Virus record (IMG/VR): IMGVR_UViG_2778261064_000026
Span: 1-43,389 of that record
Source of the DNA: a virus
Lineage: Duplodnaviria; Heunggongvirae; Uroviricota; Caudoviricetes
DNA length: 43,389 bases
Reading direction: 5' to 3' (one strand)
The notes beneath the pieces are model-generated. The model worked only from the letters and a program-made list of their open reading frames with translations, was not told the DNA's origin and ran no database searches. Shown here piece after piece: positions 889 to 37,187 of the stretch. Every line of letters begins with the position of its first letter. Within the stretch, counting starts at the first letter, position 1. A program made the position numbers and the translations under genes.

Positions 889-2568
889 ATGAAAACTAAA
901 CTGTATTCGTATATTCGCTTCTCGTCTATGCGTCAGAATGATGGTTCGAGTTATGAACGACAAATCAGGATGGCGAGAGAGATTGCGGCAAAGTATGACC
1001 TTGAACTGGTAAATGATTATCAGGATCTGGGTGTATCTGCGTTTAAGGGTGCTAACTCTAAAACAGGGGCGCTATCTCGTTTCCTTGATGCAATTGGTAG
1101 ATCCGTTCCTGTTGGTAGCTGGCTATTCATCGAAAACTTGGACCGTTTATCCCGTGCCGATATTGTCAGTGCGCAGGAGTTATTCCTTTCAATCATCCGT
1201 AGGGGAATAACCATTGTTACTGGCATGGATAACAAGATCTACTCGCTGGATACTGTTACCGCTAATCCGATGGACCTGATGTTCTCCATCCTTTTATTCA
1301 TCCGTGGTAATGAGGAAAGTCAGACTAAGCGCAATCGTACTAATTCAAGCGCACTGATTAAGATTAAATCGCATCAAGAAAATCCCCAGAATCCGGCAGT
1401 GGCAATCGAGGAAGTTGGAAAGAATATGTGGTGGACTGATACCACTTCCGGTTATGTGCTGCCTCATCCGGTGTACTTCCCTGTTGTTCAGGAGATTGTG
1501 GAATTACGGAAGAATGGACGTTCAACCGCCGAAATACTGGATCACCTTAACGAGACATATGCACCACCACCAGCAGTAAGCAACAAGAAGCATTCAAAAT
1601 GGTCACGGGCAATGGTTGAAAGGTTGTTCCATACCCGCGCTTTGATTGGTATCAAGGAAGTCTCTGTAGATGGCGTTAACTATGAGTTAAAGGATTATTA
1701 CCCTCGTGTTATTGATGACCCTACGTTCTATCACCTTAAGAAAAATATTGGTGCTAGAGCATGGAACTTTGGAGACAAGGAAGAAGTTAAACCGATCCCC
1801 CTGCTTAGTGGTATTGGCCTATTGAAATGTGATCATTGCGGTTGCGCTATGGTTAAAGTGAAGGGAACAAACAAACGTTCTGACCAGTATCGTTATACAT
1901 GTGATGCGACCCGTTCACGTAGACTTGATTGCGAGCATCCAAACTGGAGTTTTCGAGGGGATCAATTAGAGAAAGCTGTATTGCAATTGCTGGCTGATAA
2001 AATCTGGATTGCTGAGGATAAGGCTAATCCGGTTCCGGCGTTGAAAGTACAGGTTGATGAAATATCACGCAAGATTGATAACCTGATTGCCCTTTCTGCT
2101 ATGACAGGAGCAACGAAGGAGCTAGCCGATCAGATTACTACCCTCAATAGCGAGCGTGAAACACTCTACAATCAGATCAAGATGGCAGAAGAGGAAATGT
2201 ATTCTGTTGACTCTCAAGGCTGGGAGAAGCTCGCAGAATTTGATTTAGAAGATGTTTATAACGAGGAACGACTAAAGGTCCGGTTTAAGATTAAGCAAGC
2301 TCTAAAGCGGATCGGGTGTAGCAGGATTGACAGAAACAAAAACTTGTTTGTACTGGAATACATCGATGGAAAGACCCAGAGAGTTGTAATAGAAAATTCA
2401 AGAGGAACGAGGAAAGGCCGGATATTCATTGATTTGAAAACTATCAATGATAGGCAGATTCTGGAGAGTAACGGGCTTGTTCTGCATCCATGTTTAGACA
2501 TGCTGACAGATAAGAACTGGAAACCAGAGGAGGAAATACCAGGTCCATTACAGGAATTTGGAATTTAA
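889..2568 (+). CDS. large serine recombinase (integrase/resolvase-type), 559 aa
   Basis: N-terminal YIRFSSMRQ catalytic-Ser motif and LDRLSR motif of serine recombinases; Cys-rich zinc-ribbon-like segment (CDHCGC...C...C); C-terminal coiled coil. Confidence 0.8.
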   Translation: MKTKLYSYIRFSSMRQNDGSSYERQIRMAREIAAKYDLELVNDYQDLGVSAFKGANSKTGALSRFLDAIGRSVPVGSWLFIENLDRLSRADIVSAQELFLSIIRRGITIVTGMDNKIYSLDTVTANPMDLMFSILLFIRGNEESQTKRNRTNSSALIKIKSHQENPQNPAVAIEEVGKNMWWTDTTSGYVLPHPVYFPVVQEIVELRKNGRSTAEILDHLNETYAPPPAVSNKKHSKWSRAMVERLFHTRALIGIKEVSVDGVNYELKDYYPRVIDDPTFYHLKKNIGARAWNFGDKEEVKPIPLLSGIGLLKCDHCGCAMVKVKGTNKRSDQYRYTCDATRSRRLDCEHPNWSFRGDQLEKAVLQLLADKIWIAEDKANPVPALKVQVDEISRKIDNLIALSAMTGATKELADQITTLNSERETLYNQIKMAEEEMYSVDSQGWEKLAEFDLEDVYNEERLKVRFKIKQALKRIGCSRIDRNKNLFVLEYIDGKTQRVVIENSRGTRKGRIFIDLKTINDRQILESNGLVLHPCLDMLTDKNWKPEEEIPGPLQEFGI

Positions 2569-18104: not shown

Positions 18105-21100
18105 TCATTTACAGGATTTAATAGCCGCAAGTTCAGCTTTAACAGCTTTCAACTCTTCGTTCATCGCATCATACTTAGTCGTTAATTCCTGAAAGGCTTT
18201 CACGAAAAGAGCATTGATACTAGAAACAGAAATAGTTTTAATTTCTCCTGGATTTTCGGTATCTCCATCGCTGCAAACGTGCACAGCTTCCGGCATAACT
18301 TTTTCCACATCTTGAGCAATGACACCTAATTCGCGTCCAACCACTGTATCATCAGAAAGTGATTTAACTTTATCGTAGGAATATACGGTTAAGCTGTTTA
18401 ATTTATCCAGCGCACCTTCTTCCAATTCTTCCTTGTTGATCTTAAGACGTTCATCAGATCGAATATGCACATCGTTAAAGCTACCGTTACCCGGCGTGTA
18501 AAAGAACCCATCGTGATGGAACTCAAATACAGCTTGAGGGTGTCCGTTATCAGGTGAGTTTTCCGCAGATCCAACACGAATAATTGCTTGTCCCCAATTG
18601 TTAGGGATACGACGCATACCAAAATCGACGGCAGTTGTATACCCTTGATTGGTGATTAAACTTCTTGCTTTAACAATCGGATAATAACAGTCTTGTCCAA
18701 CATAGCCATGATCGACGAATATTGGCGCTTCCACTCGCCACTGATTACCCCAATCACCTGGTTGACTAGCGGTCCAACGTTCACCATGAACATATAATCG
18801 AGCGTTATTAACATGAACCATTTCGACGCCTTTTGGACTTAATGCAATATCCCCAGCGTTCGTAAGATTTATCGCGGCATTAGTAGCATAGCTATAGAAC
18901 GCTAATCCATTATCACCACCGCCTTTACCAATATACCAGTTGTTGTTGTCAGCACACGTACCCAACAAATATACAGACGAATCACCACTTTCGGCATTCA
19001 TGATAATTGCATCAGATCCACGATTAATTTTCATTTTCCCGAAGAAGGTGTTTTTAATGGTATTATCCCATAGACGTTCAAATTCGGCTAAAAATCCTTT
19101 TGAGTCACGAAGACTTAAAACGTTATTTCGACCTGTATTGCTTGCTCCCCAATGGACGAGTTCCATATAGTCCATAGATTGACGAGAACCAGCTTTAAAG
19201 AAAAGATTGTCCTCAAGACGAGTGCTACCATCAATTCCAAGATGCAAACACCGAGCGGTTGCAGTACCACCTAAATACAATCCACCGTCCGCAAAATCAT
19301 AGCTGAATGGTCTGCGATTATTCCAACTACCAAAAGAATCTTTTAAATCGGTAGTAAGAATATGGAAGCTAGAACCATCATTGCGTAACATCAAACCATA
19401 GTTACCGCCTTTGACAGCCAAACGAGCATTTTCAGATAATGCAACTTCGCTATTCATTACAATTTTCTGGCCTTTACCACCAGTAATATGTAATTCACCA
19501 TCTTCAATCAGGTTTATCGAGTTTTGACCGTTATCGTTCCACCAAATAAAATCTTTGGTTGTTCCATCACCAAAACCAAACCAGCCATTACGAACATCTT
19601 GACCAGTGCGATAATCCATAAAATTAAAATGGCTTGATTCGTTTGGTCCTCGACGAATATCAATACCAGAATTTCCAGTAACACCGCCATCCAATGTTAA
19701 TTTCTTGACATGTAACCCGGATGTTACTGTCAGCAATAATTCCTGATTTGTATCTTCGTATCCAGTAGCAAGACGATATGCGTTATCATCAACTGTCTCA
19801 TGCCAGATTGTAGCTGGTGCACAACTACGGAAGCGACGCAACATCTTTTTAGCATTTGTCGGTTGTTCGTTTAAATGCTCAATGTCGTATTGGCCTTGAT
19901 GGTTTCCAGCAAAATTTAATGTCCCACGGTTGCTAAAGTTATTAAACGATGAAATGTTAAGAGCATCAAAAATTTCATCTGCAACAGGTTTTTCACCGCC
20001 CAGGTATTCAGGAGTATCCAACAGGTTTAAAGAAACACCACCGGAAGAAACTTGATATTCTGCTAAAACAAATCCTGTATGTGCACCATAGTAAGCGTAA
20101 AGATCGTAATTATCACCATCGGTAGGAATTGCACAAAAATGTTGTTCGTAATACCAAATAGTATAATACGCATTGAATACAACACCTTTCGGGCTATTGT
20201 TGCCGCAACGGATCACCAGTTCAATAACATTGGCTTGTCCATTCTGTCCGACGTTATAACCGTTACCACCCACTAAACGGATCTTAGCCGTACGACCGTG
20301 TTGTTGTGGCATTGTCAAAGTGCCTAGTTTAAACCAACCGCCCTCGATCCCAAAATTAAGCGTCTTCTGGAAAAGTCGGTCAATTTCTGCTTTCGAATAT
20401 GCGCCAATTTCAGCCGGAGTAGGTTTATCACCTTCGTGATACATGCGGTGAGAATATGCTAAATGACCCAATTCATCATAGCCGTATGTTCTTACCGTAG
20501 CATGTGGATTAGACCCATAAGTGAACTCAAAACCACGAGCATGATTAACACCGGATGGATGGGGAACATGCAACGCTAAAGCAATATGACCAGCTAGATC
20601 ATTCATGCGGAATGCACCAAAGTAATCAAGATTACGAGCATTTGGATCATCAAAATAGTTTGCGGTCTTAGACAGCAAATAACCATCAGTGTAAGTGTTT
20701 ACGTGTTTTTTGATGTACTTACCGTCACTCGATCCGTCGGCTGCATCAATACGGCTTTCTAAGCGTGCCAATTCAGAATCAGTGTAAGACTTGTTATTGT
20801 CAACTTTGCTATGAATTGCTGAATTTTTGGCTTCAACATCACGGGTTAATGCTGCGACGTTATCCGCTGCCTCTTGCTTGTTTGCTGCAATAACACTATT
20901 AAGGCTATCGCGCGTAGCGGTTAGCTGATTTTCCGCATAAATTTTATTTGCTGCGATAGTGCGATCAGTCTCGGCCTTAATCAAATCAACTTTGTCATTG
21001 ATAGCTTTATCATTGCTTGCGATGGTTGCATCAGTACGGGATTTAATATCATCAACTTTTTTATTGATGCGGGTGTCCAGTTCCTGAGTTGCTACAGCAG

Positions 21101-22449: not shown

Positions 22450-22878
22450 TTAAAAACGCGCTAGATAAGAAAATTTAAGGCTAAGTGTCCCAACGATACC
22501 CCCATCACTAGAATCATCGTCATAATCGGTATTAGAAGCTACTGGAGTGATATCTGAAATAGAGAAGCCCAAATCTTTAAATCGTGGGTTATCCGGCTGA
22601 ATCTGGATTATCTGGCAAATACCCTCATGAATTTTCGTTTCATGAATCTGAGAATATAATTGCATTTCGATAACGCATTCAGCTTGCATTGCATTACCAC
22701 CACGGACCCTAGTGTAAGTCTCATTCATTCCGGTAATCCAACACACCACGTCATCGCTAAAACCAGTTTGAGTTTGTTCTACGTTTAAAGCCAGACCTAG
22801 ATCTTGTTCGATAATATCCTGTAAAGCACGTTTAATCTTAAGACGTGGCATATTATTAACGGTAGCGAGCATGTGCAC
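22450..22878 (-). CDS. head-tail connector/completion protein, 142 aa
   Basis: size and position after capsid gene. Confidence 0.35.
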   Translation of the reverse strand: MHMLATVNNMPRLKIKRALQDIIEQDLGLALNVEQTQTGFSDDVVCWITGMNETYTRVRGGNAMQAECVIEMQLYSQIHETKIHEGICQIIQIQPDNPRFKDLGFSISDITPVASNTDYDDDSSDGGIVGTLSLKFSYLARF

Positions 22879-27440: not shown

Positions 27441-29345
27441 TTAGAACGATGTTACCCAGCTACGGCCTCTATTTGGACGTCTGGCGATGTTTTGACGTTG
27501 TGGTCGTGTGATTGGCTTAGTTTCTTCGATTTGCTCGTCAGATTGCGTTTCAGGAGCTTTTACGGGTTCTTCTGGTTCACGGTTCAAACTATCTTTGATG
27601 GCTTCGAGTTTTTCCCATGACATTTTATTGAGTACATGGCGAGAAGCAGCATAGGAATAAGCCAGGCAGTCGAGAGCCTCGTTTCGTTGCTGACCAACTT
27701 TTACCCAACGTGTGGTGTTACCCTGCCGTTTCAACTGTTCAGAAAGCAATTGCTCGCAATAGTCATCAGGAACGTCGCCAATCTGGAAGACAGTGTGAGG
27801 ATCGCCATCTCTCAAATTCCGGTTAATCATTTCACGGATCATCGTTTTAAGGTTGTTTACGCCCAGAATTTTAAGGGTAAAACCACCCGTTCTTGTGTCT
27901 TTTACCGGAAGGATTGGTGCATCAACATTGCTTGCGCCTTTAATGGCGGTTAGATTTTGCCACCGACTACAGAATCGATAGATCACTTGCGTAGCTCGTC
28001 CGTTCGATGAGTCCACGAAAGCAGATAACATCGGGATTCGTTCACCGGATCGGGTATAGAATTTCGCTTTCAGGAAGTTGTAAAGCTGGTCATATGCTGG
28101 TGATTCGTGGCGTTCGCAGTTCACATCATAGAATGATCGGTGATCAACTACGCATAGCCCTTTACGAGAAATACCCAGCAAGGTAGATTCCAGACGGTCT
28201 TTTTGCTGGTCAACTCCACCAACCAGAGCCAGTACATCATCAGGAATATTGTCTAGGCTAATATCAGTTTTCAGCGTTTCTAATTCGTCGGCTGTGCGGT
28301 CTTCGTTAAGATCATCGAAGGTTTCACCGAGGACTGTATTGTAGAACGTTGCCAGGGACATATTCGCGTAGCTATCAGCAAAGTCCACCACACACGCACG
28401 GATAGAACTAAACGGAGACATAAGGCGGTTAGCATGAAAACCGATTACTTCCGCGTTTGGTTCGGTGGCGACCCATTCTCCCTTAGCAACAGCACGTAGG
28501 CGATCCCCTTCGGTCCAATCGGTTTCACATTCAGGGCAACGGTAAACGGCTGTATCTGGGTTGGGTAATGATTTACCGTTAATCGTATGCCAATCGAAAT
28601 GTACGTTACTCCATTCCATTACGTGCTTGTGTCCGCAATGCTGGCAAACGACATGATATTTTCTCTTATCCGAGAGTTCCCATTGTTGGTTAATCGCCCC
28701 ATCACGAGCGGTTGGAGTGGAAGCAATTACGATCCTTGCATCTTCCCCGAAAGTGGTTGCGCGTTGTTCCGCTAGCTGGATCGGGTTCCCTTCGTCTGAT
28801 TCATCAGCCGCATCAACTTCATCAAGAATAATCAAAGGGAGTGTCTTACCGCGCAAGTGTGATGGACTGTTCAGCGACATGAAATACATGAATGATCCAT
28901 TACGAAGCTGAATAATCGATGAGTTGTTAACAGCATTACGGTCTGATTTGTCGGTGATCATCGCTTTTAATTCTGGCGTTGCCTCTAATACTGGCTTCAC
29001 CTTACCAGCGATCCAAGAATTTAGTTCCCTAACGTTACTTTGCAACACCCCAATATTCGTAGGGTTACTCGCGATCCGATGGAAGATAATTCCGTTAAGA
29101 ATCATGGTCTTACCCAACTGCGCCGAACATTTAAACACAATTTTTCTACGGTCTTCGGTGATCGCGTCCATCATTCCACGTTGGAAGGGATGCAATTTAA
29201 TTAGCGATCCGGCTTTAACACCATCGGTTGCAACTACATTAGCCTCTACCCATTCGCTAGGTTTCATCGTTTTAGGTGGGCGAATTGCCGCAGAGATATT
29301 TTTAAGAATCTTTTTTAATTTGGCCTTATTAGAAATCAGTTTCAT
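27441..29345 (-). CDS. terminase large subunit, lambda gpA family, 634 aa from MKLISNK
   Basis: Walker A KCSAQLGKT; CQHCGH zinc motif; NTVLGETF and RNEALDCLAYSYAA segments matching gpA-family landmarks; RBS gaggg before ATG 29345; track ORF extends to 29420. Confidence 0.85.
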   Translation of the reverse strand: MKLISNKAKLKKILKNISAAIRPPKTMKPSEWVEANVVATDGVKAGSLIKLHPFQRGMMDAITEDRRKIVFKCSAQLGKTMILNGIIFHRIASNPTNIGVLQSNVRELNSWIAGKVKPVLEATPELKAMITDKSDRNAVNNSSIIQLRNGSFMYFMSLNSPSHLRGKTLPLIILDEVDAADESDEGNPIQLAEQRATTFGEDARIVIASTPTARDGAINQQWELSDKRKYHVVCQHCGHKHVMEWSNVHFDWHTINGKSLPNPDTAVYRCPECETDWTEGDRLRAVAKGEWVATEPNAEVIGFHANRLMSPFSSIRACVVDFADSYANMSLATFYNTVLGETFDDLNEDRTADELETLKTDISLDNIPDDVLALVGGVDQQKDRLESTLLGISRKGLCVVDHRSFYDVNCERHESPAYDQLYNFLKAKFYTRSGERIPMLSAFVDSSNGRATQVIYRFCSRWQNLTAIKGASNVDAPILPVKDTRTGGFTLKILGVNNLKTMIREMINRNLRDGDPHTVFQIGDVPDDYCEQLLSEQLKRQGNTTRWVKVGQQRNEALDCLAYSYAASRHVLNKMSWEKLEAIKDSLNREPEEPVKAPETQSDEQIEETKPITRPQRQNIARRPNRGRSWVTSF

Positions 29346-29430
29346 GTAATTACCCTCATTACGAAATATGAAGGTATTTATTAAATTGTTGATTTTTTGA
29401 TAAATACGGGTATTAATCAAAGGGGGTTGT

Positions 29431-30036
29431 ATGCTAATTAATCAGCAACAAAGAGATGTATTAGAATTAGCCTTTTCTTGTTGTACCGATCATGAATATC
29501 GTTTGCCAGTTAAGCACCATCACAAGAAGACTGATTACACAACATCTGGATTTAGTCGTGAGGAAGCGAAAGAGATTTTAATAGAATTTTACCGCGATAA
29601 TGGTTATACAGACGTTCACAACTTCTTTAAGAAGCATAGAACATCACATACAGAGTTCCAGAGAGTCCGAGATTGGTTTGATTTTGATATCAAGCGTTAT
29701 TATCGAGTGGATGACGGTCCGATCTATCGGTTGCAGTGGAAGCCGATCCGAGAAGTGTTGAAACAGAAGAGATTGAATCACGCAATTACACGCTATCGTA
29801 ACGAGGCTTTCAAGAAAGGCTATGGTGATACAAGGGAACTATTCGTTGAACTCGCTAACGTGCGTTATAGCCACTATTACAACGATCCTAAAGGGTTCTT
29901 TGAAGTGCTTCGCAAGGTTGATATAAGTCGGGGTACATACTATTCACGGTTGAAGAAGTACGGGATTAAGGCAGAGTTCTTTATGAGTATTGACGATGGA
30001 GAACTTTTTCCGATAAAATGTAAGTCCTCTAAATAA
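29431..30036 (+). CDS. hypothetical protein, 201 aa, with C-terminal HTH module paralogous to the small HTH proteins
   Basis: C-terminal RELFVELANVRY...GTYYSRLKKYGIK aligns with the 60-aa and 77-aa proteins; RBS aaaggggg. Confidence 0.4.
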   Translation: MLINQQQRDVLELAFSCCTDHEYRLPVKHHHKKTDYTTSGFSREEAKEILIEFYRDNGYTDVHNFFKKHRTSHTEFQRVRDWFDFDIKRYYRVDDGPIYRLQWKPIREVLKQKRLNHAITRYRNEAFKKGYGDTRELFVELANVRYSHYYNDPKGFFEVLRKVDISRGTYYSRLKKYGIKAEFFMSIDDGELFPIKCKSSK

Positions 30037-30064
30037 AGGTGAACATTCACTTTAATTTGGAGAA

Positions 30065-30298
30065 ATGACTATGACTACTAAAGCTACTCGCGGTCGTCCT
30101 TGCCGTTTTACCCGTGAACAGATGGCTGATATTGCCTATGCTTACTATACAGCGGATCGTGGTAAGGAAGCGAAAGAACAGATTCTTAGTGAACATGGGA
30201 TCTCAATCGCCCAATTCTATAAGAATATGAAGAAGTTAGACATTAAATTCTATGTTCAGATCGGTGATGGTCAGATCGTAGAAGCAACAGGTTTTTGA
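30065..30298 (+). CDS. small HTH DNA-binding protein, 77 aa (FTRE...KKLDIK family)
   Basis: RGRPCRFTREQMADIAYAYY...GISIAQFYKNMKKLDIK, transposase-OrfA/resolvase-like HTH pattern. Confidence 0.45.
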   Translation: MTMTTKATRGRPCRFTREQMADIAYAYYTADRGKEAKEQILSEHGISIAQFYKNMKKLDIKFYVQIGDGQIVEATGF

Positions 30299-30313
30299 GT
30301 TTTGATTCTCTTT

Positions 30314-30338
30314 GCCACTCTTCGGAGTGGCTTTTTTG
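30314..30338 (+). terminator. rho-independent terminator
   Basis: gccactc-ttcg-gagtggc followed by tttttt. Confidence 0.7.
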
Positions 30339-30381
30339 TATGTAAAACAATCTGAGCAAAATTGGTTAGATCACCAGATAC

Positions 30382-30410
30382 AAAAAGCCCAGCGCAATTA
30401 TGCGCCGGGC
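30382..30410 (-). terminator. terminator after Rha-family gene
   Basis: 9-bp stem with one mismatch plus U-run on minus strand. Confidence 0.5.
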
Positions 30411-30416
30411 GATTAA

Positions 30417-31241
30417 TCACAGTCCGAAGACTTCCAGTGATCCAACATTCTGGCGTAGACGTTCAGCCGCTTTATTTTGAATCAGAATAGTGTTGTTCGG
30501 CTTAGGAAGATTCAGAGTTGCTTTTTGTTCTTCTTCCAGAACACCCAATTCAACCAGCACCGGAAGCACATCAACAGTAAACTCAAGCTGGTAGTGAGCA
30601 TTCATGCGGCAGAAAGACAGAGAAGAGTCATTAGCAACATACCCACACGGCTTGTTATTTTCATCGTAGACGCGCTCAATGTAGCCAGCAGTACGCAAGG
30701 CCGTTAGTGCTTCTTTAACCTTCGTAGCGCCCTTTTTAGCGCCTAACAGACGGGTCATTGAATGGCTATCTACTGATTTGCGAACATGAAGTTCAATCAG
30801 CTTTTTATTTTCGCGAGTTTTCTTTAATGCCAGTTCGATCCAGTCTGTTTCTTCAAAGTCTGCATACGGGTTAACGGCTAAACGTTCCTGACGCAGTTTT
30901 TCATTTTCTTCTTTCAGTCGCTTCCATTCCTGAATAACAACCATTCGACGCTTAACATCGTAACCAGTGACAAGAGTCAGCGTCATTTCTTCGTCTAAGT
31001 GATATACTGGTTCTTTAACAGCATATCCTAAGTTATTGATTCTCTCGACAAATTCAGTTTTGAGCTGATCGATAATACCTAAAGATTCGTACATTTCGCG
31101 AATATCGCGCATTACATTGCTGTGCTTCTTATCGGTAAATTCAGCGATCTGACGGGAAGACATGGTCAGCGGTTTGGTGTTATCGACAACCAGAGACACG
31201 GAAGCAGTTTTAGCAGTATTCATAACGGTAACAGTATTCAT
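30417..31241 (-). CDS. Rha-family phage regulatory protein (antirepressor-like), 274 aa
   Basis: N-terminal LTMSSRQIAEFTDKKHSNVMRDIREM typical of Rha domain. Confidence 0.7.
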   Translation of the reverse strand: MNTVTVMNTAKTASVSLVVDNTKPLTMSSRQIAEFTDKKHSNVMRDIREMYESLGIIDQLKTEFVERINNLGYAVKEPVYHLDEEMTLTLVTGYDVKRRMVVIQEWKRLKEENEKLRQERLAVNPYADFEETDWIELALKKTRENKKLIELHVRKSVDSHSMTRLLGAKKGATKVKEALTALRTAGYIERVYDENNKPCGYVANDSSLSFCRMNAHYQLEFTVDVLPVLVELGVLEEEQKATLNLPKPNNTILIQNKAAERLRQNVGSLEVFGL

Positions 31242-31330
31242 AGTAAAAATTCCCCTTAAACGGTTTAATGATTTGGTCCTCCTAGTTCCGGCATCACCAC
31301 CGGAACAATTTTATTTATAATAGAAATTTA

Positions 31331-31663
31331 TTACCAATCGATTTCTACCTGATCTTCTTCGTAGTAAGGAATCGCATATTCATAACGCCAGTTTTCGATG
31401 ATTTCACGTTCTTCATTAGTAAGAAGGTGATTGCTAACTGGAGTCGCATTGTGATTACCAGCTTCGAATTGTTCGCGAACTTCCAGCATTGCATGAATAC
31501 CAGTTAAGGACATCAGATCAAACGGAACATGCATACTACGGGAGATTGTTTCACGGGATACGCCCCAATCATTTTCTACATGGCTAGGGCTTACAGAAAC
31601 GGTTTTGCCGGAGATTTTAACAGTCCAGTCATACAGGGATTTAGTGATGGTAAATTCTTTCAT
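31331..31663 (-). CDS. hypothetical protein, 110 aa
   Basis: ORF track; co-oriented upstream of Rha-family gene. Confidence 0.4.
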   Translation of the reverse strand: MKEFTITKSLYDWTVKISGKTVSVSPSHVENDWGVSRETISRSMHVPFDLMSLTGIHAMLEVREQFEAGNHNATPVSNHLLTNEEREIIENWRYEYAIPYYEEDQVEIDW

Positions 31664-31675
31664 GTTACATCCTCT

Positions 31676-31780
31676 TTACAAATCTAGGTCAAATAGGTTC
31701 AAAATTGTCAAGTGCGATAATCATAAAAAAGTCAGAAAATTTTGTCAATACCCCTTGACAAGACGCCAAAGGGTTGACCT
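31676..31780 (-). promoter_or_regulatory. promoter with overlapping operator-like inverted repeats
   Basis: minus-strand TTGACA, 17-nt spacer, TATGAT; inverted repeat TTGTCAA-N6-TTGACAA at about 31742-31761; outer pair AGGTCAA/TTGACCT. Confidence 0.4.
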
Positions 31781-31783
31781 AAA

Positions 31784-32236
31784 TTACAGCATATCTAAGC
31801 CTTCATCGTAACCGTAGAAGCCACCGTGAGAAGAGAAACAGATTGGTGTGTAGTCGTCGTCATCTTCGTCTTGTTCATCGTGTTCTGGGGCTTCCTGAGC
31901 GGGTTGTTTACCATAATCAGCCATAATCTGGTCAAGATCGGCGATCCCATAGTAAGAGCCTAAATCAACGTCATATTCACGAACATCAAACGGCAGGTCA
32001 TCACGAACAATAATTGCCGGAATGTTGTTGTATTGTTCACGACCTTCATCAGTAAAGCAGTCTACGATCACCGTAGGGCGACCATTACGTTTAAGAGCAT
32101 AGAAAGCAGTTGAGAAATTGGAGTCTTCGGAATGACGAATGATGTTATAACCACGATTAGCGAAAACATGCATCATAGCCAGATTATCATCATGGTTCAG
32201 ACCCAGAAGAATGAAAGGAGTTTTAGTATTGATCAT
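31784..32236 (-). CDS. hypothetical protein, 150 aa, with acidic C-terminal tail
   Basis: ORF track; RBS agagga; EHDEQDEDDDDY tail. Confidence 0.4.
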   Translation of the reverse strand: MINTKTPFILLGLNHDDNLAMMHVFANRGYNIIRHSEDSNFSTAFYALKRNGRPTVIVDCFTDEGREQYNNIPAIIVRDDLPFDVREYDVDLGSYYGIADLDQIMADYGKQPAQEAPEHDEQDEDDDDYTPICFSSHGGFYGYDEGLDML

Positions 32237-32497
32237 AGTGGAAATCCTCTAAAAGAAAGTGAATCAAACAAAGTACACTATTATTTATAACGAGAAATTT
32301 TTGTCTAATTTGAAAGGAATTGGTATTCAGTCGGCTTCGCCTCCTTCATAGATTTTGATTAAATCATCATCAAAACGAAGAAGTATCTTTAGAATATAAG
32401 AATCTTTCTTTTGGAGAAATTATAATCAGGAAGCAATTTAGCAACCGAAGGTTGCAATCCCGAAGGGATAACCAATACCTTTCATGATCATTAAAGT

Positions 32498-32720
32498 GAT
32501 CTAGAATCATCTAGTAACCAGTTAACTACTATTATCTTCAAAGTGATTATTACTATCTTTCTAGAATCAGTTAGTAACTAGTTTAAAAATCCCTTTCAAG
32601 AAAATCCTTTCAGAAGTGATTCTCGATGCCACGCAGTGGCGTCGCAGACGTTTGAGAGTGAGCGAAGCGAGCGAGCAAACTAGTTAATTCCTTCTAAGAC
32701 CATCTAGTATCATCTAGTTT
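32498..32720. repeat. cluster of CTAG-rich palindromic repeats
   Basis: ctagaatcatctagtaaccagttaact, ctagaatcagttagtaactagtt, catctagtatcatctagtt; palindromes AGTTAACT, AACTAGTT, TTCTAGAA. Confidence 0.4.
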
Positions 32721-32865
32721 AAATTAGTGTTACTAGAAGTAATTGGTTAGCGCTTCGCGCAGTCGGGCTACGCCCTCCTAATATCTTTTTGGTTATTTGT
32801 TGTTTTTGGTTTTACACATGAGCGTAGCGAATGTGTTATATAATATCTATGCACGCCCGATTCCC

Positions 32866-33110
32866 CGTTTTTGCCCCTCGCTAAGTTAATGTTTTATAAA
32901 GAGTTTTTCTCACCAATCCTTTTCGGGGGCAAATTTCAGGGGCAAAAATTAGATTTTCAGGGGCAATTATTGGCATTTCAGGGGCAAAAATGAGGGGCAA
33001 AATCACCGTTTCCCAGAATTTCAGGGGCAAAAATAGTAGGTTTCAGGGGCAAAAATGGGATAGTGAAATCTAGGGGATTTTGGTTCAGGGGCAAAATTCA
33101 GGGGCAATTT
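32866..33110. repeat. iteron array: nine direct copies of (T)TCAGGGGCAA(AAAT) plus one inverted copy
   Basis: GGGGCAA cores at about 32926, 32939, 32960, 32981, 32995, 33024, 33046, 33088, 33101; inverted at 32871; spacings mostly 13-14, 21-22, 42 bp. Confidence 0.65.
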
Positions 33111-33148
33111 TCATAGTGTAGTGCTAGTGTAGGTTTGAAAGTCCTTTC

Positions 33149-33177
33149 TTGACACTATGTAGGTTTGGTGCTATACT
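33149..33177 (+). promoter_or_regulatory. near-consensus sigma70 promoter P1 (TTGACA, 17 nt, TATACT)
   Basis: read directly from sequence. Confidence 0.6.
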
Positions 33178-33206
33178 TGACAATTTGAGAAAAAATGTGG
33201 TATAAT
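33177..33206 (+). promoter_or_regulatory. consensus sigma70 promoter P2 (TTGACA, 18 nt, TATAAT), overlapping P1
   Basis: read directly from sequence. Confidence 0.6.
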
Positions 33207-33626
33207 ATTTGTATTGAAAGTGAAAATTTACCGATTTTCCTTCCTATTGTTATCACCGTGTTAAATTGTTATATGTTTGTGAAGATTTGGATCTGAGAGA
33301 AAATCTTGTAACAAATCTTTACAATTCATAGCTCAATTAATGCTCACCGCTTTAGCAAAAAGTGCTATGCATTTTTCTAAATTGATTGAATAAACATCAA
33401 TTTGGTTAATTCGTGTTCTTCTCTTTAGCAATTCGTGCTGCGGTTTAACACATTTAACACGTCTGATAACATCTGAATAACATTTTAACATATCTCTGTT
33501 ATAAATACATATATAAGAGATAAATGTGAGGGGTTGAAAAATAAAATACAATCCCCATATAAATAATAGTGAGCGGTTAACGCTCTTTTTTAAGAAATCA
33601 TTAATCCAGATTTAGGAGGATTTAAG

Positions 33627-33809
33627 ATGGCACGACCTGTTAAGTTCACTCGTGAAATCGTTTTAGAAATGGCAAAGCGTTATTTTGAACTGACACCTGA
33701 TGTAGTGATGGGTGAATGGTTTAAAGGTGAAGGTATTGATCAATCAACCTTCCACAAACTCTTAAAGAAGTATGACATTAAAGTAAAGATTACCGCAGAG
33801 GTGTGGTAA
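33627..33809 (+). CDS. small HTH DNA-binding protein, 60 aa (FTRE...KKYDIK family)
   Basis: MARPVKFTREIVLEMAKRYF...GIDQSTFHKLLKKYDIK; RBS aggagga. Confidence 0.5.
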   Translation: MARPVKFTREIVLEMAKRYFELTPDVVMGEWFKGEGIDQSTFHKLLKKYDIKVKITAEVW

Positions 33810-33922
33810 TAACCTTTCACTGAGAATTATATGATGGCTTTAAAAAAGAAAAAGCCTCCCTTGTTGCAGCAAAGGAGGCTTGAAATGAACAATTAAAACT
33901 AACTTTCCACGGAGTATTTATA

Positions 33923-34864
33923 ATGTTATTTTCCGCTAACTTTTTCACTAACGAAGTAACCAACGCTAAAGCAGTTATCAAATTTGGCACCGAAGCAAAC
34001 AAGAAGATTCAGCCGAAAGTTGTTGCTCATGTTTCCTTTGCGCAGCAGAAATCCGCTTTCGCTGGCTTTAAAGCACATCGTGAAGCACTGATCGCGGCTG
34101 GCTTTGGTGTTGACGGTAAACTGCCTAACGGCATTCGTAAAGCAATCGACCGCGTTAAACCTGCTAAAGACGTTGCAGTAGACCGCATCGTTACTTTTAC
34201 CGTTAAGAACTCTTCTGAACTGTTCCACCTGGTTATTGCTGGTGATACTGCTATCGTTTCCGCTCCTAACATGGATTTTCAGGATACCGCTGATTGCCAG
34301 ATCACCTTCGGTCGTCGTAAAGAAGTTACCGGAAAAGCTAAACTGAACTTCACTAAATCCGGCAATCCTTACTTTGCTGTTTTCTTTAACAGCCACGCTA
34401 CCGAAAAAGAAGTTGTAGAACTGGTTGCTTATGAAGGTGAAGAGAAAGAACGTATTGAATCTTGCGAAGCATTTCTGGAACTGGAAGCACAGGTGAATGC
34501 TGTTTCTCCGGTTGTTGAAGATCGCTTTGCTGCACTGGAAGCACAGATCGCAGAACTGAAAGCTGCACTGGAAGAAAAAGACCAGATTATCGAAGCACAG
34601 AAAGCTGAGATTGAAGAACTGAAAGCTAAAGAAGTTGCTCCGGTAGCAGTAGTTGAAAACGCGGCTGATGAGGCCGCAAATGATGAAGTAGAAGTGAAAA
34701 TCGATGTGATGCGTGATCCGATGGCTGCACTGCAATTACTTCGTTCTTTTAAGGGCAAATCTCATTTTTCTAGTGATGTAGAAGATGAGGAAGAAGAACA
34801 GAAACGCAATGCTGCAATGCTTCATGATGAAATGTACGGTACTAACTTTTCTTACTGCCAATAA
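33923..34864 (+). CDS. hypothetical protein, 313 aa, with central coiled coil and acidic patches; likely highly expressed
   Basis: host-optimal codons (ctg, cgt, ggt, aac, ttc); first large ORF downstream of tandem consensus promoters. Confidence 0.5.
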   Translation: MLFSANFFTNEVTNAKAVIKFGTEANKKIQPKVVAHVSFAQQKSAFAGFKAHREALIAAGFGVDGKLPNGIRKAIDRVKPAKDVAVDRIVTFTVKNSSELFHLVIAGDTAIVSAPNMDFQDTADCQITFGRRKEVTGKAKLNFTKSGNPYFAVFFNSHATEKEVVELVAYEGEEKERIESCEAFLELEAQVNAVSPVVEDRFAALEAQIAELKAALEEKDQIIEAQKAEIEELKAKEVAPVAVVENAADEAANDEVEVKIDVMRDPMAALQLLRSFKGKSHFSSDVEDEEEEQKRNAAMLHDEMYGTNFSYCQ

Positions 34865-34867
34865 AAA

Positions 34868-34886
34868 AGGGACTCCGAAGAGTCCC
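34868..34886 (-). terminator. terminator-like hairpin
   Basis: gggactc-cgaa-gagtccc preceded by A6 on plus strand (U-run on minus). Confidence 0.4.
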
Positions 34887-34970
34887 TAGTAAGTTTAGGT
34901 TAGGTTTTGCACAACAAAGATGAGGTTATAATGAACATAATGCTACATTATTCTTTAAAGCCAGAAAAAT

Positions 34971-34990
34971 AACCGCCCCCGAAGGGGCGG
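34971..34990 (-). terminator. terminator-like hairpin
   Basis: ccgcccc-cgaa-ggggcgg preceded by aaaaataa on plus strand. Confidence 0.4.
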
Positions 34991-35148
34991 GAGGATTAAT
35001 ACTCAATCTATACTTGTTATGTTTTTATGTTGTATAGTCACTGACTATGAAAACACTGTACTGAATGTGTTTTATGGCTTTTAATCGGGAACTCTCTTTC
35101 GAAAATTCCCTGTTAAAACCACATAAGGAGAAATGGCAGATTACAATA

Positions 35149-35433
35149 TTATTTAGTCTGTTTGAAAACAAACGTTAAAAATTCGATTAAGCAATATACC
35201 CAGCATACAGTAAGCAGTAGATGCATAGAAATAGCCGGATGGAAGTTAAAAAGTGTCATACTAACTAGGCCAACAATATAAGAAATTCCTTCGACAATTA
35301 ACGCAAGACTAGCAAATGCAACAAACGCACCTAAGAATAATTCAGCACGTTCTCTATTTTCGGTTCCGAGTTTATAAGCAGAAATAACAGCCAGAATAGT
35401 AATGATGACAGCATAGGTAATAAAAGTAGCCAT
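35149..35433 (-). CDS. small integral membrane protein, 94 aa, about 3 TM helices
   Basis: three hydrophobic segments; RBS aagagga. Confidence 0.45.
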   Translation of the reverse strand: MATFITYAVIITILAVISAYKLGTENRERAELFLGAFVAFASLALIVEGISYIVGLVSMTLFNFHPAISMHLLLTVCWVYCLIEFLTFVFKQTK

Positions 35434-35527
35434 AGTTTTATATCCTCTTAAAAGTTAAGCGGGGGATGTTCTCCCCCGTAGACGTTGACCAGCTCAACAT
35501 CTTTCATACATTTATTTATAACGCGTT

Positions 35528-36094
35528 TTAAGACACATCAAATTCATCGTCTTCTTCTGGTTCTTGTTCCGGTTCATCCATTAATGGTAATTCTTCTTCC
35601 TCGTCTTCACCAAAATCTGCATTTTCGAACAAGTCCCCTACTTCATTTAAACGACGCTCGATGATCTCCCTTAGCTTATTCTTCAATGTTTTCTGATCAG
35701 TGGCAGATTCGAGAATTTCTAAAGCGTCGATTGTGGCGATCTGCAAAATAGTCTGCTTCACTTTTCCGCAATATTCCGCTAGTTGCTGTTCTACATACCC
35801 GACAGGAATCAGGAGATTCATTGCTTCCTGGTTCTCTCGTTCGGCTGCGTCCGCTAATGCTCTCTCGCGGCGTAACTTCTCTACGTCGATTTGTTCTTTG
35901 ACAGTAGTTTCCCTGAGTGGACTGATGATATTTTTTGCTATCCATTCGGTCCCTTCCTTGAGCGGTACGCGTCGTGTATTGGTGTTAAATGGCATTCCTC
36001 GTTCTTGCCATTTCTTAGCGGCGTTAATTGTATAGCCGTATAAGCGGGAAATTTCTGTAAGGGTTAATTCTTCTTTCATCCGGTTATCCTCCAT
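35528..36094 (-). CDS. Nu1-like DNA-binding protein (candidate terminase small subunit), 188 aa
   Basis: N-terminal LTLTEISRLYGYTINAAKKWQERGMPF resembles lambda Nu1 winged-HTH (TIQNWQEQGMP) as I recall it; very acidic C-terminus. Confidence 0.4.
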   Translation of the reverse strand: MEDNRMKEELTLTEISRLYGYTINAAKKWQERGMPFNTNTRRVPLKEGTEWIAKNIISPLRETTVKEQIDVEKLRRERALADAAERENQEAMNLLIPVGYVEQQLAEYCGKVKQTILQIATIDALEILESATDQKTLKNKLREIIERRLNEVGDLFENADFGEDEEEELPLMDEPEQEPEEDDEFDVS

Positions 36095-36378
36095 TAAATT
36101 TGCGTAAAATTATTTATCTGATCTGCGCATTCAGGAGAGCGCCTAAAACGCTTTATAACGAAGGGAAAGATCGAGGCGAGGAAAGGGATTGGCTGGTGTT
36201 AATAGTCGCGTAGCGACCGCGCTGGTGGGCTGCACTGCACCTGTTTTGAAATCTCACACGCACATCAAAAACCGGGGTGCCGAAAACTCGCTTTATTTCA
36301 CCCGTGGAACAGTACCTATCAATTTTGTCAAGTCTTTTTTATAAATAATCGAAAATATTTTTCACGCGAGGGCAAATC

Positions 36379-36684
36379 ATGAAGACTAAAGATATTAAGA
36401 TTGACTTTGAAACTGTTGATGACGTTCGGGAACATCGCATTGATTCTACTGGCTGCATCTTCCAGCTTACTAACTCCCCTATTGGATTGATTATCTATGT
36501 AGCAGAAGATGACGTGTACGCTATGTGGGATGGACAGGATGAGTTTAAAGGCGGGAATAGCCATCTGATCAATACTCATGAGGGATTCGATCCGACTCCT
36601 GTCTGTATGCTTGCTTATCACGTAACACTGGATGAACTACCGGAAGCAAGCGCGCGTATCCGTAAAATGAAAGATATTAAGTGA
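36379..36684 (+). CDS. hypothetical protein, 101 aa, last gene before the chromosome junction
   Basis: ORF track; terminator downstream. Confidence 0.4.
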   Translation: MKTKDIKIDFETVDDVREHRIDSTGCIFQLTNSPIGLIIYVAEDDVYAMWDGQDEFKGGNSHLINTHEGFDPTPVCMLAYHVTLDELPEASARIRKMKDIK

Positions 36685-36702
36685 TGTAAGTAATTGATTC
36701 CT

Positions 36703-36732
36703 AAGCCCTGTCCTTGTGATGGGGCTTTTTTA
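36703..36732 (+). terminator. rho-independent terminator
   Basis: agccc...ggggct hairpin plus tttttt. Confidence 0.5.
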
Positions 36733-36746
36733 TTGGAAATCGGGTG

Positions 36747-37187
<441 letters not shown>

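Follow-up and report, generated by a model that had tools for sequence, protein, structure and literature searches.

The operons whose logic we read, by analogy, as closest to the locus described here are phage immI regions and acr-aca loci. In P22 immI the order is a promoter with a symmetric element (Pant), a small gene (arc), the ant gene and a terminator, accompanied by Mnt and Arc operators and the antisense RNA sar; the immI regions of P1 and N15 carry icd-ant. In acr-aca loci, a strong promoter with inverted repeats precedes small, acidic, exchanged orphan cargo and a conserved DNA-binding-type gene in the same operon. Here we analyse a minus-strand locus of the virus record IMGVR_UViG_2778261064_000026, whose whole 43,389 nucleotides (nt) we call the window. 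It comprises an open reading frame (ORF) for a protein of 150 amino acids (aa), ORF150, a conserved spacer, an exchangeable cargo gene, which in the window is the 110-aa ORF110, and a Rha-type gene. This ORF150-cargo-Rha module is real, well delimited, previously undescribed and made of orphan genes (Table 1).

The locus shares with the immI regions of P22, P1 and N15 a strong promoter under a symmetric element, followed by a small gene and an antirepressor-type gene. As in those regions, the unit is separate from the classical immC region, closes with a terminator of its own and has a hairpin just upstream of the ant-like ribosome-binding site. Here, however, the position of the small gene can be filled by any of three unrelated proteins, next to symmetric DNA that stays constant. 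In contrast to P22, ORF110 lacks the ribbon-helix-helix fold, the locus has no divergent mnt-like gene, and both antirepressor activity and antisense RNA are putative. Apart from the Rha/Ant N-domain, we found no homology to the Arc, Mnt, Ant and Icd families in Pfam and PHROGs. With the acr-aca loci, the module has in common a strong promoter and inverted repeats that immediately precede small, variable cargo genes, and a cargo that assorts independently. However, no known Acr or Aca family was detected and no defence system was identified as a target. In addition, the putatively DNA-binding N-domain of the Rha-type protein is hypervariable while the repeats are constant, and autorepression here is hypothetical.

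Two further comparisons are instructive. Like phage morons, the accessory gene ORF110 occupies a mosaic slot behind a near-consensus sigma-70 promoter of its own. It does not class as a moron, because no terminator separates it from the Rha gene; nor is its GC content deviant. Since the first terminator on this strand lies beyond the Rha gene, the two genes should be co-transcribed. T7 Ocr, ArdA and Arn are also small, very acidic, orphan-like proteins at the start of early operons, but we found no sequence or fold similarity with them, and most of the charge of ORF150 is located in its disordered tail, not on a surface that mimics DNA.

The exchangeable slot and its constant flanks

Both ORFs named in a preliminary description of the window proved to be real genes, lying where it had placed them. 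Each is under purifying selection, with a ratio of non-synonymous to synonymous substitution (dN/dS, pairwise Nei-Gojobori) of 0.19 for ORF110 (17 alleles) and 0.28 for ORF150 (33 distinct alleles). Each has a good Shine-Dalgarno sequence upstream, and both are annotated by PGAP, which takes a shorter ORF150 start in some genomes. Their description as proteins of no known kind also holds, since remote homology and structure searches gave neither a family nor an informative fold. Neither had a match in Pfam, PHROGs, NCBIfam, the PADLOC defence-system library (E <= 0.1) or PDB (searched by profile). ORF110 homologues form only eight clusters, and an exhaustive profile search of 1.84 billion representative proteins returned two full-length representatives, from its own small family only.

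ORF110 is acidic and presumably soluble. Its AlphaFold 2 (AF2) model has four strands and two long helices, and a fold search gave nothing informative. Residues 30-40 look like a helix-turn-helix, at low confidence; the match to Pfam HTH_38 reaches 14.4 bits against a cut-off of 27 and covers a single helix. We thus assign ORF110 to neither the helix-turn-helix nor the Arc/Mnt ribbon-helix-helix proteins, and no other DNA-binding feature was detected. A role for ORF110 as the repressor binding the spacer repeat was considered and rejected, as the repeat is constant across unrelated cargo alleles.

In other loci the same slot holds a gene for one of two other proteins, a basic one of about 51 aa or one of 59 aa, neither of them related to ORF110, between flanks that stay constant (the spacer and Shine-Dalgarno sequence upstream, TTATAAATAA and a hairpin downstream). 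Among 35 loci, 19 carry the 110-type gene, 13 the 51-type and 2 the 59-type. The cargo allele is independent both of the ORF150 allele cluster and of the Rha N-domain alleles, of which there are at least 11; ORF150, cargo and Rha N-domain alleles all assort independently. The 51-type gene is also carried by Salmonella, and a 107-aa relative of ORF110 fills the slot in a more distant prophage. The slot counts, the independent assortment and these last two occurrences argue that ORF110 is long-standing exchangeable cargo, and its description as exchangeable accessory cargo in a regulated slot is supported. Both genes had initially been taken for accessory genes; this stands for ORF110, with its three-allele slot, but not for ORF150, which is found in every locus that retains the module.

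The 120-bp spacer between ORF150 and the cargo gene is locally the most conserved DNA, with a mean pairwise identity of 0.92-0.97, against 0.67-0.84 for the DNA coding for the ORF150 N-domain. The spacer element is present in 41 of 42 related loci and, within IMG/VR, occurs only in this prophage family. As first described, it contains the promoter TTGACA-17-TATGAT overlapping the repeat TTGTCAA-N6-TTGACAA. Perfect 7-N6-7 inverted repeats are unremarkable alone (8 in the window, 2.9 in shuffles), and we take this one as real because it is conserved across related loci. Both half-sites are perfect in 38 of the 41, with 11 different spacers, and a TAnnnT -10 element follows at 16-18 nt in all 41. 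Promoter and half-sites are kept in the Salmonella-type loci L039 and L040/L041. The coding-strand consensus reads AGGTCAAC-CCYTTGG-(loop)-TGTCAAGG-(4-5 nt)-TTGACAA-(17)-TATGAT-(8)-CTTGACAA-(12)-TTGACC, and varies only in the loop/spacer, in the promoter spacer and between the two final boxes. The repeat is thus part of a larger nested symmetry, which could be an operator or an RNA hairpin.

The preliminary description had put both genes under this promoter. That is right for ORF110, the only one to sit behind it, but ORF150 lies upstream, behind a TATAAATA element of its own. A search of the window for another copy of the palindrome gave no convincing one. The divergent promoter of the gene ORF60 carries, in other alleles, CTTGACA-N2-TGTCAAG over its -35, with the same 7-mer as the repeat; the CTTGACA/TGTCAAG sequence shared by the two promoters hints at a common regulator. 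This sequence and the TTGACAA box at about +2 speak for an operator.

The gene downstream of ORF110 on the minus strand is, as had been proposed, of the Rha family: residues 27-110 match Pfam PF09669 (Phage_pRha) with 47.3 bits (cut-off 29.9, E 3.2e-12). It falls below the stricter NCBIfam model TIGR02681 (32.2 bits versus 45.95), and its N-terminal half matches PHROG anti-repressor families (2.8e-17). The Rha-type proteins share a leader, MNTVTxMNTA... (loci L003-L042). Their N-domain comes in at least 11 alleles (80% level) among 34 loci, and their C-terminus is conserved in all; the C-terminal domain gave only sub-threshold winged-helix hints. The gap between cargo and Rha genes contains TATAAATA in 27 of 39 loci and CATAAATA in 10. 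The hairpin in this gap keeps its position while its stem sequence is, in some loci, entirely replaced (GTTCCGG/CCGGAAC, CGCGCGCC/GGCGTGTG or GTGTCC/GGGACAC), and Salmonella has an alternative hairpin there. On the coding strand, this hairpin 3' of ORF110 has no T-run. On the plus strand, the terminator scan found it to be terminator-like and followed by a T-run, and it resembles a terminator ending an RNA antisense to the Rha ribosome-binding site.

ORF150 and the TATAAATA elements

ORF150 is a core gene, not cargo. The only locus that departs from the rule is L006, where a deletion fuses ORF150 to the 59-aa cassette gene. Homologues form 75-94 clusters, always in this prophage family, and where the organism is named they come from E. 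coli, Shigella and Salmonella only. The proteins of Salmonella-type loci are 35-42% identical and conserved full length. The TATAAATA element upstream of ORF150 is kept in 38 of 39 loci, including those of Salmonella type.

In the AF2 model of ORF150 (predicted local distance difference test, pLDDT, 70), residues 1-110 form a beta-alpha-beta domain and residues 111-150 are disordered. Of the net charge of -20, -13 is in this tail. The acidic run EHDEQDEDDDDY noticed at the outset is indeed present, but it is not the end of the protein: a conserved 22-residue aromatic/hydrophobic peptide follows at the C-terminus. The best-conserved part across genera is the C-terminal DDDDY-x-P-[IV]-x-FSS..G[FY]YGY.E.[LF][DE]ML. 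Synonymous divergence is about 1.0 in the N-domain versus 0.24 in the tail, and the N-domain value implies that the alleles are old lineages and not a recent burst.

A profile search with ORF150 reached the Salmonella homologues and no other family, and the fold search returned only generic, weak P-loop-like matches. The Walker A motif GxxxxGK[ST] is absent, and the protein classes neither as a P-loop nucleoside triphosphatase nor as a nucleotide kinase. A pairing of the N-domain with the nearby iterons or with the 313-aa protein encoded beyond them was considered and rejected, its alleles showing no covariation with either. The single-stranded DNA-binding protein (SSB) ends in a tail with the motif DDDIPF, and C-terminal clamp-binding motifs read QL[SD]LF. 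The ORF150 tail resembles such docking motifs in its DDDDYxP[IV]xF and C-terminal [GA][LF][DE]ML segments, which all full-length homologues keep; this likeness serves as a lead only. As a candidate short linear motif, the tail peptide may recognise a host target common to E. coli and Salmonella.

The window holds eight copies of TATAAATA versus 2.85 expected, and none of 100 shuffles reaches eight. All are intergenic, lack a -35 and are aimed at a downstream gene or terminator. TATAAATA is the T4 late promoter consensus, and copies precede genes including ORF150 and the Rha gene. ORF150 also recalls T4 gp33, a clamp-tethered co-activator, in being small and acidic with a hydrophobic/acidic C-terminal peptide. 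However, contrary to the T4 late system, the elements precede regulatory and accessory genes and no structural gene, homologues of gp55, gp33 and gp45 were not detected, and the likeness is by motif only.

Two TATAAATA copies have neighbours of a different kind. At 33852-33922, a minus-strand copy is followed, about 35 nt on, by a strong terminator hairpin (33881-33852); the pair could delimit a small RNA of about 60 nt antisense to the intergenic region between ORF60 and the 313-aa protein gene. Another copy precedes a plus-strand gene (578-823) that adjoins the attachment site and encodes an 81-aa protein with a lipoprotein-type signal peptide, a candidate lysogenic-conversion gene.

Proposed mechanism and rival explanations

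We tentatively read the locus as a leftward transcription unit with a fixed frame and an exchangeable middle, that is, a regulated early or accessory operon carrying an effector. Architecture, conservation and coding status are established; the functions that we attach to them are offered with modest confidence. The unit would run from ORF150 through the conserved promoter and repeats, the cargo gene, the hairpin and the Rha-type gene to the terminator. Host RNA polymerase would start at the spacer promoter, which the repeats over the -35 and around +1 would restrain, either as sites for a conserved phage protein or through a read-through hairpin from ORF150. ORF110 would be co-expressed with the Rha-type regulator as an accessory protein binding another protein, its most plausible target being a function of the host or of a rival phage (in counter-defence or inter-phage competition). 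For ORF150 we propose a core protein of adaptor or inhibitor type, with a variable globular domain joined to an invariant docking peptide at the C-terminus, and this peptide may bind a partner conserved between E. coli and Salmonella. A bolder version combines an ORF150 docking adaptor that mimics the SSB tail or a clamp motif to catch a host replisome or RNA polymerase component, T4-late-like, co-activator-dependent TATAAATA promoters for the regulatory genes, and three new counter-defence cargo families; we consider this combination highly improbable.

Several observations weigh against the effector operon. ORF110 and ORF150 have no homology to known anti-defence, exclusion or regulatory proteins, and no informative fold; the anti-defence or superinfection-exclusion role first suggested for them is a hypothesis. 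No binding protein was identified for the repeats, and their half-sites hardly vary, so that covariation shows neither protein binding nor RNA pairing; the operator control initially assumed is putative, the same bases also fitting a larger conserved RNA/DNA hairpin at the end of ORF150. A cargo protein translated with an antirepressor-like protein could be its regulatory partner rather than an independent effector. Finally, the locus does not lie in a recognised accessory island, as the preliminary description would have it, but in the control region of the phage, which has the small-terminase gene on one side and the large-terminase gene on the other, and there it adjoins the iteron module.

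Does the repeat rather form the right-hand part of a stem-loop that ends the ORF150 mRNA, acting as an attenuator, a stabiliser or a processing site, and merely overlap the -35 of the next promoter, which would be constitutive? This is possible, if somewhat doubtful. RNA folding after the ORF150 stop gives a 14-pair stem (GGUCAACCCUUUGGC/GUCAAGGGGU..UGAC) in which the left half-site and the -35 have other roles than in the 7-N6-7 repeat. This stem accounts for two invariant blocks, AGGTCAAC and CTTTGG, to which the 7-N6-7 operator model gives no role. Across 21 distinct sequences, 96% of the stem is paired (98.6% in the 7-N6-7 model), with variation mostly in the loop; one compensatory change is seen, together with U·G-to-C-G changes in Salmonella-type loci and one other locus. 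This covariation is not significant, however, as 181 of 500 shuffles do as well, and it cannot separate operator from hairpin because the repeat arms hardly vary. One pair is broken in 5 of the 21 sequences, the fold z-score is only -1.95, and two TTGAC boxes downstream of the -10 are left over. Nor is the hairpin a canonical terminator, since about 13 nt separate the stem from the nearest T-run; the terminator scan called none. An immI-like operon, for its part, would make Rha the antirepressor, the small gene and perhaps ORF150 its regulators or expression couplers, on the model of Arc in P22 or Icd in P1, and the repeats a lysogen-silencing operator. We hold this to be unlikely, although the Rha N-terminal half matches anti-repressor families, the gene order mirrors, by analogy, that of Pant-arc-ant, and the plus-strand terminator-like hairpin stands just before the Rha ribosome-binding site, where P22 has sar. 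Moreover, we found no LexA box in the regulatory DNA, nor any CI-type repressor in the set of proteins scanned; induction control must therefore be unusual. Yet unrelated proteins replace one another in the small-gene position next to operator-like DNA that stays constant, and the small gene therefore cannot be an operator-specific repressor. ORF110 is acidic, with neither a ribbon-helix-helix nor a helix-turn-helix in its predicted fold, the promoter scan detected no antisense promoter, and the antirepressor activity of Rha is annotation only.

ORF150 has also to be considered apart from the operon, as a replication or host-takeover accessory in which a degenerate P-loop-like scaffold carries a tail that docks a host replisome or RNA polymerase component. 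The tail would recruit this component to the neighbouring iteron origin, or inhibit it. The gene does border the iteron region, where the repeats covary with the 313-aa protein, and a tail (DDDDYxP[IV]xF...[GA][LF][DE]ML-COOH) that is the part most conserved across genera fits a host partner common to E. coli and Salmonella. We nevertheless find both versions, recruitment and inhibition, rather improbable: there is no Walker A motif, the fold match is weak and generic, neither iteron nor Rep type covaries with the N-domain alleles, the SSB-like motif stands inside the sequence and not at its C-terminus, and the clamp-like pentapeptide lacks the usual Gln. That the ORFs are chance frames or decaying pseudogenes of a defective prophage is scarcely credible and already effectively refuted. 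Neither belongs to a known family and PGAP takes the shorter ORF150 start in some genomes, but such frames would not be expected to show dN/dS values of 0.19-0.28, full-length conservation up to Salmonella and good Shine-Dalgarno sequences before both starts, in a prophage with complete modules and many intact alleles.

With one conserved promoter/repeat element and three natural cargo alleles, the locus is a compact test bed. Should the cargo proteins be effectors against host defences or rival phages, they would represent three new families, and an operator function of the repeats, if confirmed, would lead to the master regulator of the group. Otherwise, the locus would be an ordinary mosaic early operon with orphan genes.

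Neighbouring features and prophage setting

Table 1. Positions of the module, its regulatory elements and other prophage features in the window (pI, isoelectric point)
Feature	Position	Strand	Remarks
ORF150	31784-32236	minus	150 aa, core orphan protein, pI 4.2, net charge -20
120-bp regulatory spacer	31664-31783	minus	promoter, nested repeats, TTGACAA and TTGACC boxes, Shine-Dalgarno sequence
Nested inverted repeats	31742-31780		AGGTCAAC-CCYTTG...CAAGGGG-TA-TTGAC part at 31744-31780
Exact repeat TTGTCAA-N6-TTGACAA	31742-31761		overlaps -35 hexamer
Sigma-70 promoter TTGACA-17-TATGAT	31748..31720	minus	-35 at 31743-31748, -10 at 31720-31725, score 11/12
TTGACAA box	31705-31711		at about +2, conserved
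TTGACC box	31687-31692		conserved
Shine-Dalgarno AGAGGA	31670-31675		ORF110 side of spacer
ORF110	31331-31663	minus	110 aa, acidic orphan, pI 4.8, net charge -10; one of three slot genes
TATAAATA and 7-bp GC-rich hairpin	31285-31319	minus	TATAAATA at 31312-31319, hairpin at 31285-31306; between cargo gene and Rha Shine-Dalgarno sequence
Rha-family gene	30417-31241	minus	274 aa, hypervariable N-terminal Rha domain, conserved C-terminal ~130 aa
Intrinsic terminator	30387-30410	minus	10-bp stem, 8 GC pairs, then TTTTTGT; closes cargo-Rha unit
TATAAATA element of ORF150	32282-32289	minus	46 nt upstream of ORF150 start, no usable -35, candidate ORF150 promoter
TATAAATA 8-mer starts	537, 31312, 32282, 33500, 33558, 33915, 35513, 36340
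313-aa protein gene	33923-34864	plus
Large serine recombinase	889-2568		prophage gene
Tail, head, portal, GpA-type large-terminase gene block	8066-29420	minus
Large-terminase gene	27441-29420
Small-terminase-like gene	35528-36094

The window contains a complete prophage of about 36.7 kb (roughly 1-36,700), which a serine recombinase inserted into ycdX of E. coli. The host genes ghrA and tRNA-Ser lie to its right, and the second ycdX fragment is immediately to the left of position 1. The modules for structure, lysis and integration are complete, many alleles are intact, and a UvsW-like helicase and an M15 endolysin are also encoded. The locus is within a 6-kb control region flanked by the two terminase genes: the small-terminase-like and large-terminase genes are 6 kb apart, with the entire control region between them, and the small-terminase gene is a short transcription unit of its own, adjoining the attachment site.

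The control region is carried by 63 of 5426 complete E. coli genomes (about 1%), and the prophage lineage occurs in E. coli (including enterotoxigenic, ETEC, and Shiga toxin-producing, STEC, strains), Shigella and Salmonella. We found no close phage isolate, the best large-terminase match being 43.7% identical. A megablast of the control region against phage records gave no match, as did tblastn of ORF110, ORF150 and the Rha C-domain against 50,697 phage records and of ORF110 and ORF150 against 72,556 plasmids; no relative was found in the species-representative genomes searched. A literature search on the ycdX prophage or the ORF150-cargo-Rha module returned nothing relevant. Judging from sequence, and the Rha domain aside, none of the regulatory proteins examined is like a characterised regulator.

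Upstream of ORF150, the non-coding DNA at 32320-32780 is rich in short GC-rich hairpins with UUCG or GAA loops on an AT-rich background. It includes a four-copy repeat, TCTAGAATCATCTAGTAAC, of about 17-24 nt (32500-32726), without a match in Rfam; covariance models run over 29300-36800, which covers this DNA and the spacer, gave no match at E <= 1. Further on, at 32870-33110, are at least nine AGGGGCAA repeats, mostly in TTTCAGGGGCAAAAAT context and at 21/22-bp spacing, closely followed by a tandem pair of consensus promoters (33149-33206). Repeat type and 313-aa protein allele show perfect covariation ('MLFSANFF' with AGGGGCAA in 17 loci, 'MKNSKRITF' with GTGTAGGTT in 10); the allele of ORF60, located between the repeats and the 313-aa gene, assorts independently. 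The 313-aa protein is probably iteron-binding, either a replication initiator or a regulator.

ORF201 (29431-30036), ORF77 (30065-30298) and ORF60 (33627-33809), all on the plus strand, encode small basic proteins with a common C-terminal motif, G-I-x-x-S/A-x-F/Y-x-K-x-L/M-K-K-Y/L-x-I-K (in ORF201, at the C-terminus). This motif may be read as helix-turn-helix-like, and makes the three proteins candidate regulators of this phage.

Two observations concern the structural genes. The 91-nt tRNA-Glu(ttc) called by ARAGORN at 22595-22685 on the plus strand is probably a false positive; it lies inside, and antisense to, a structural ORF (22450-22878). In the 1142-aa tail-fibre gene, the stretch at 18364-20670 has 83-87% DNA identity to gp37, the distal long-tail-fibre gene of T4-like E. 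coli phages, and this degree of identity indicates a recent exchange between the temperate prophage and virulent phages.

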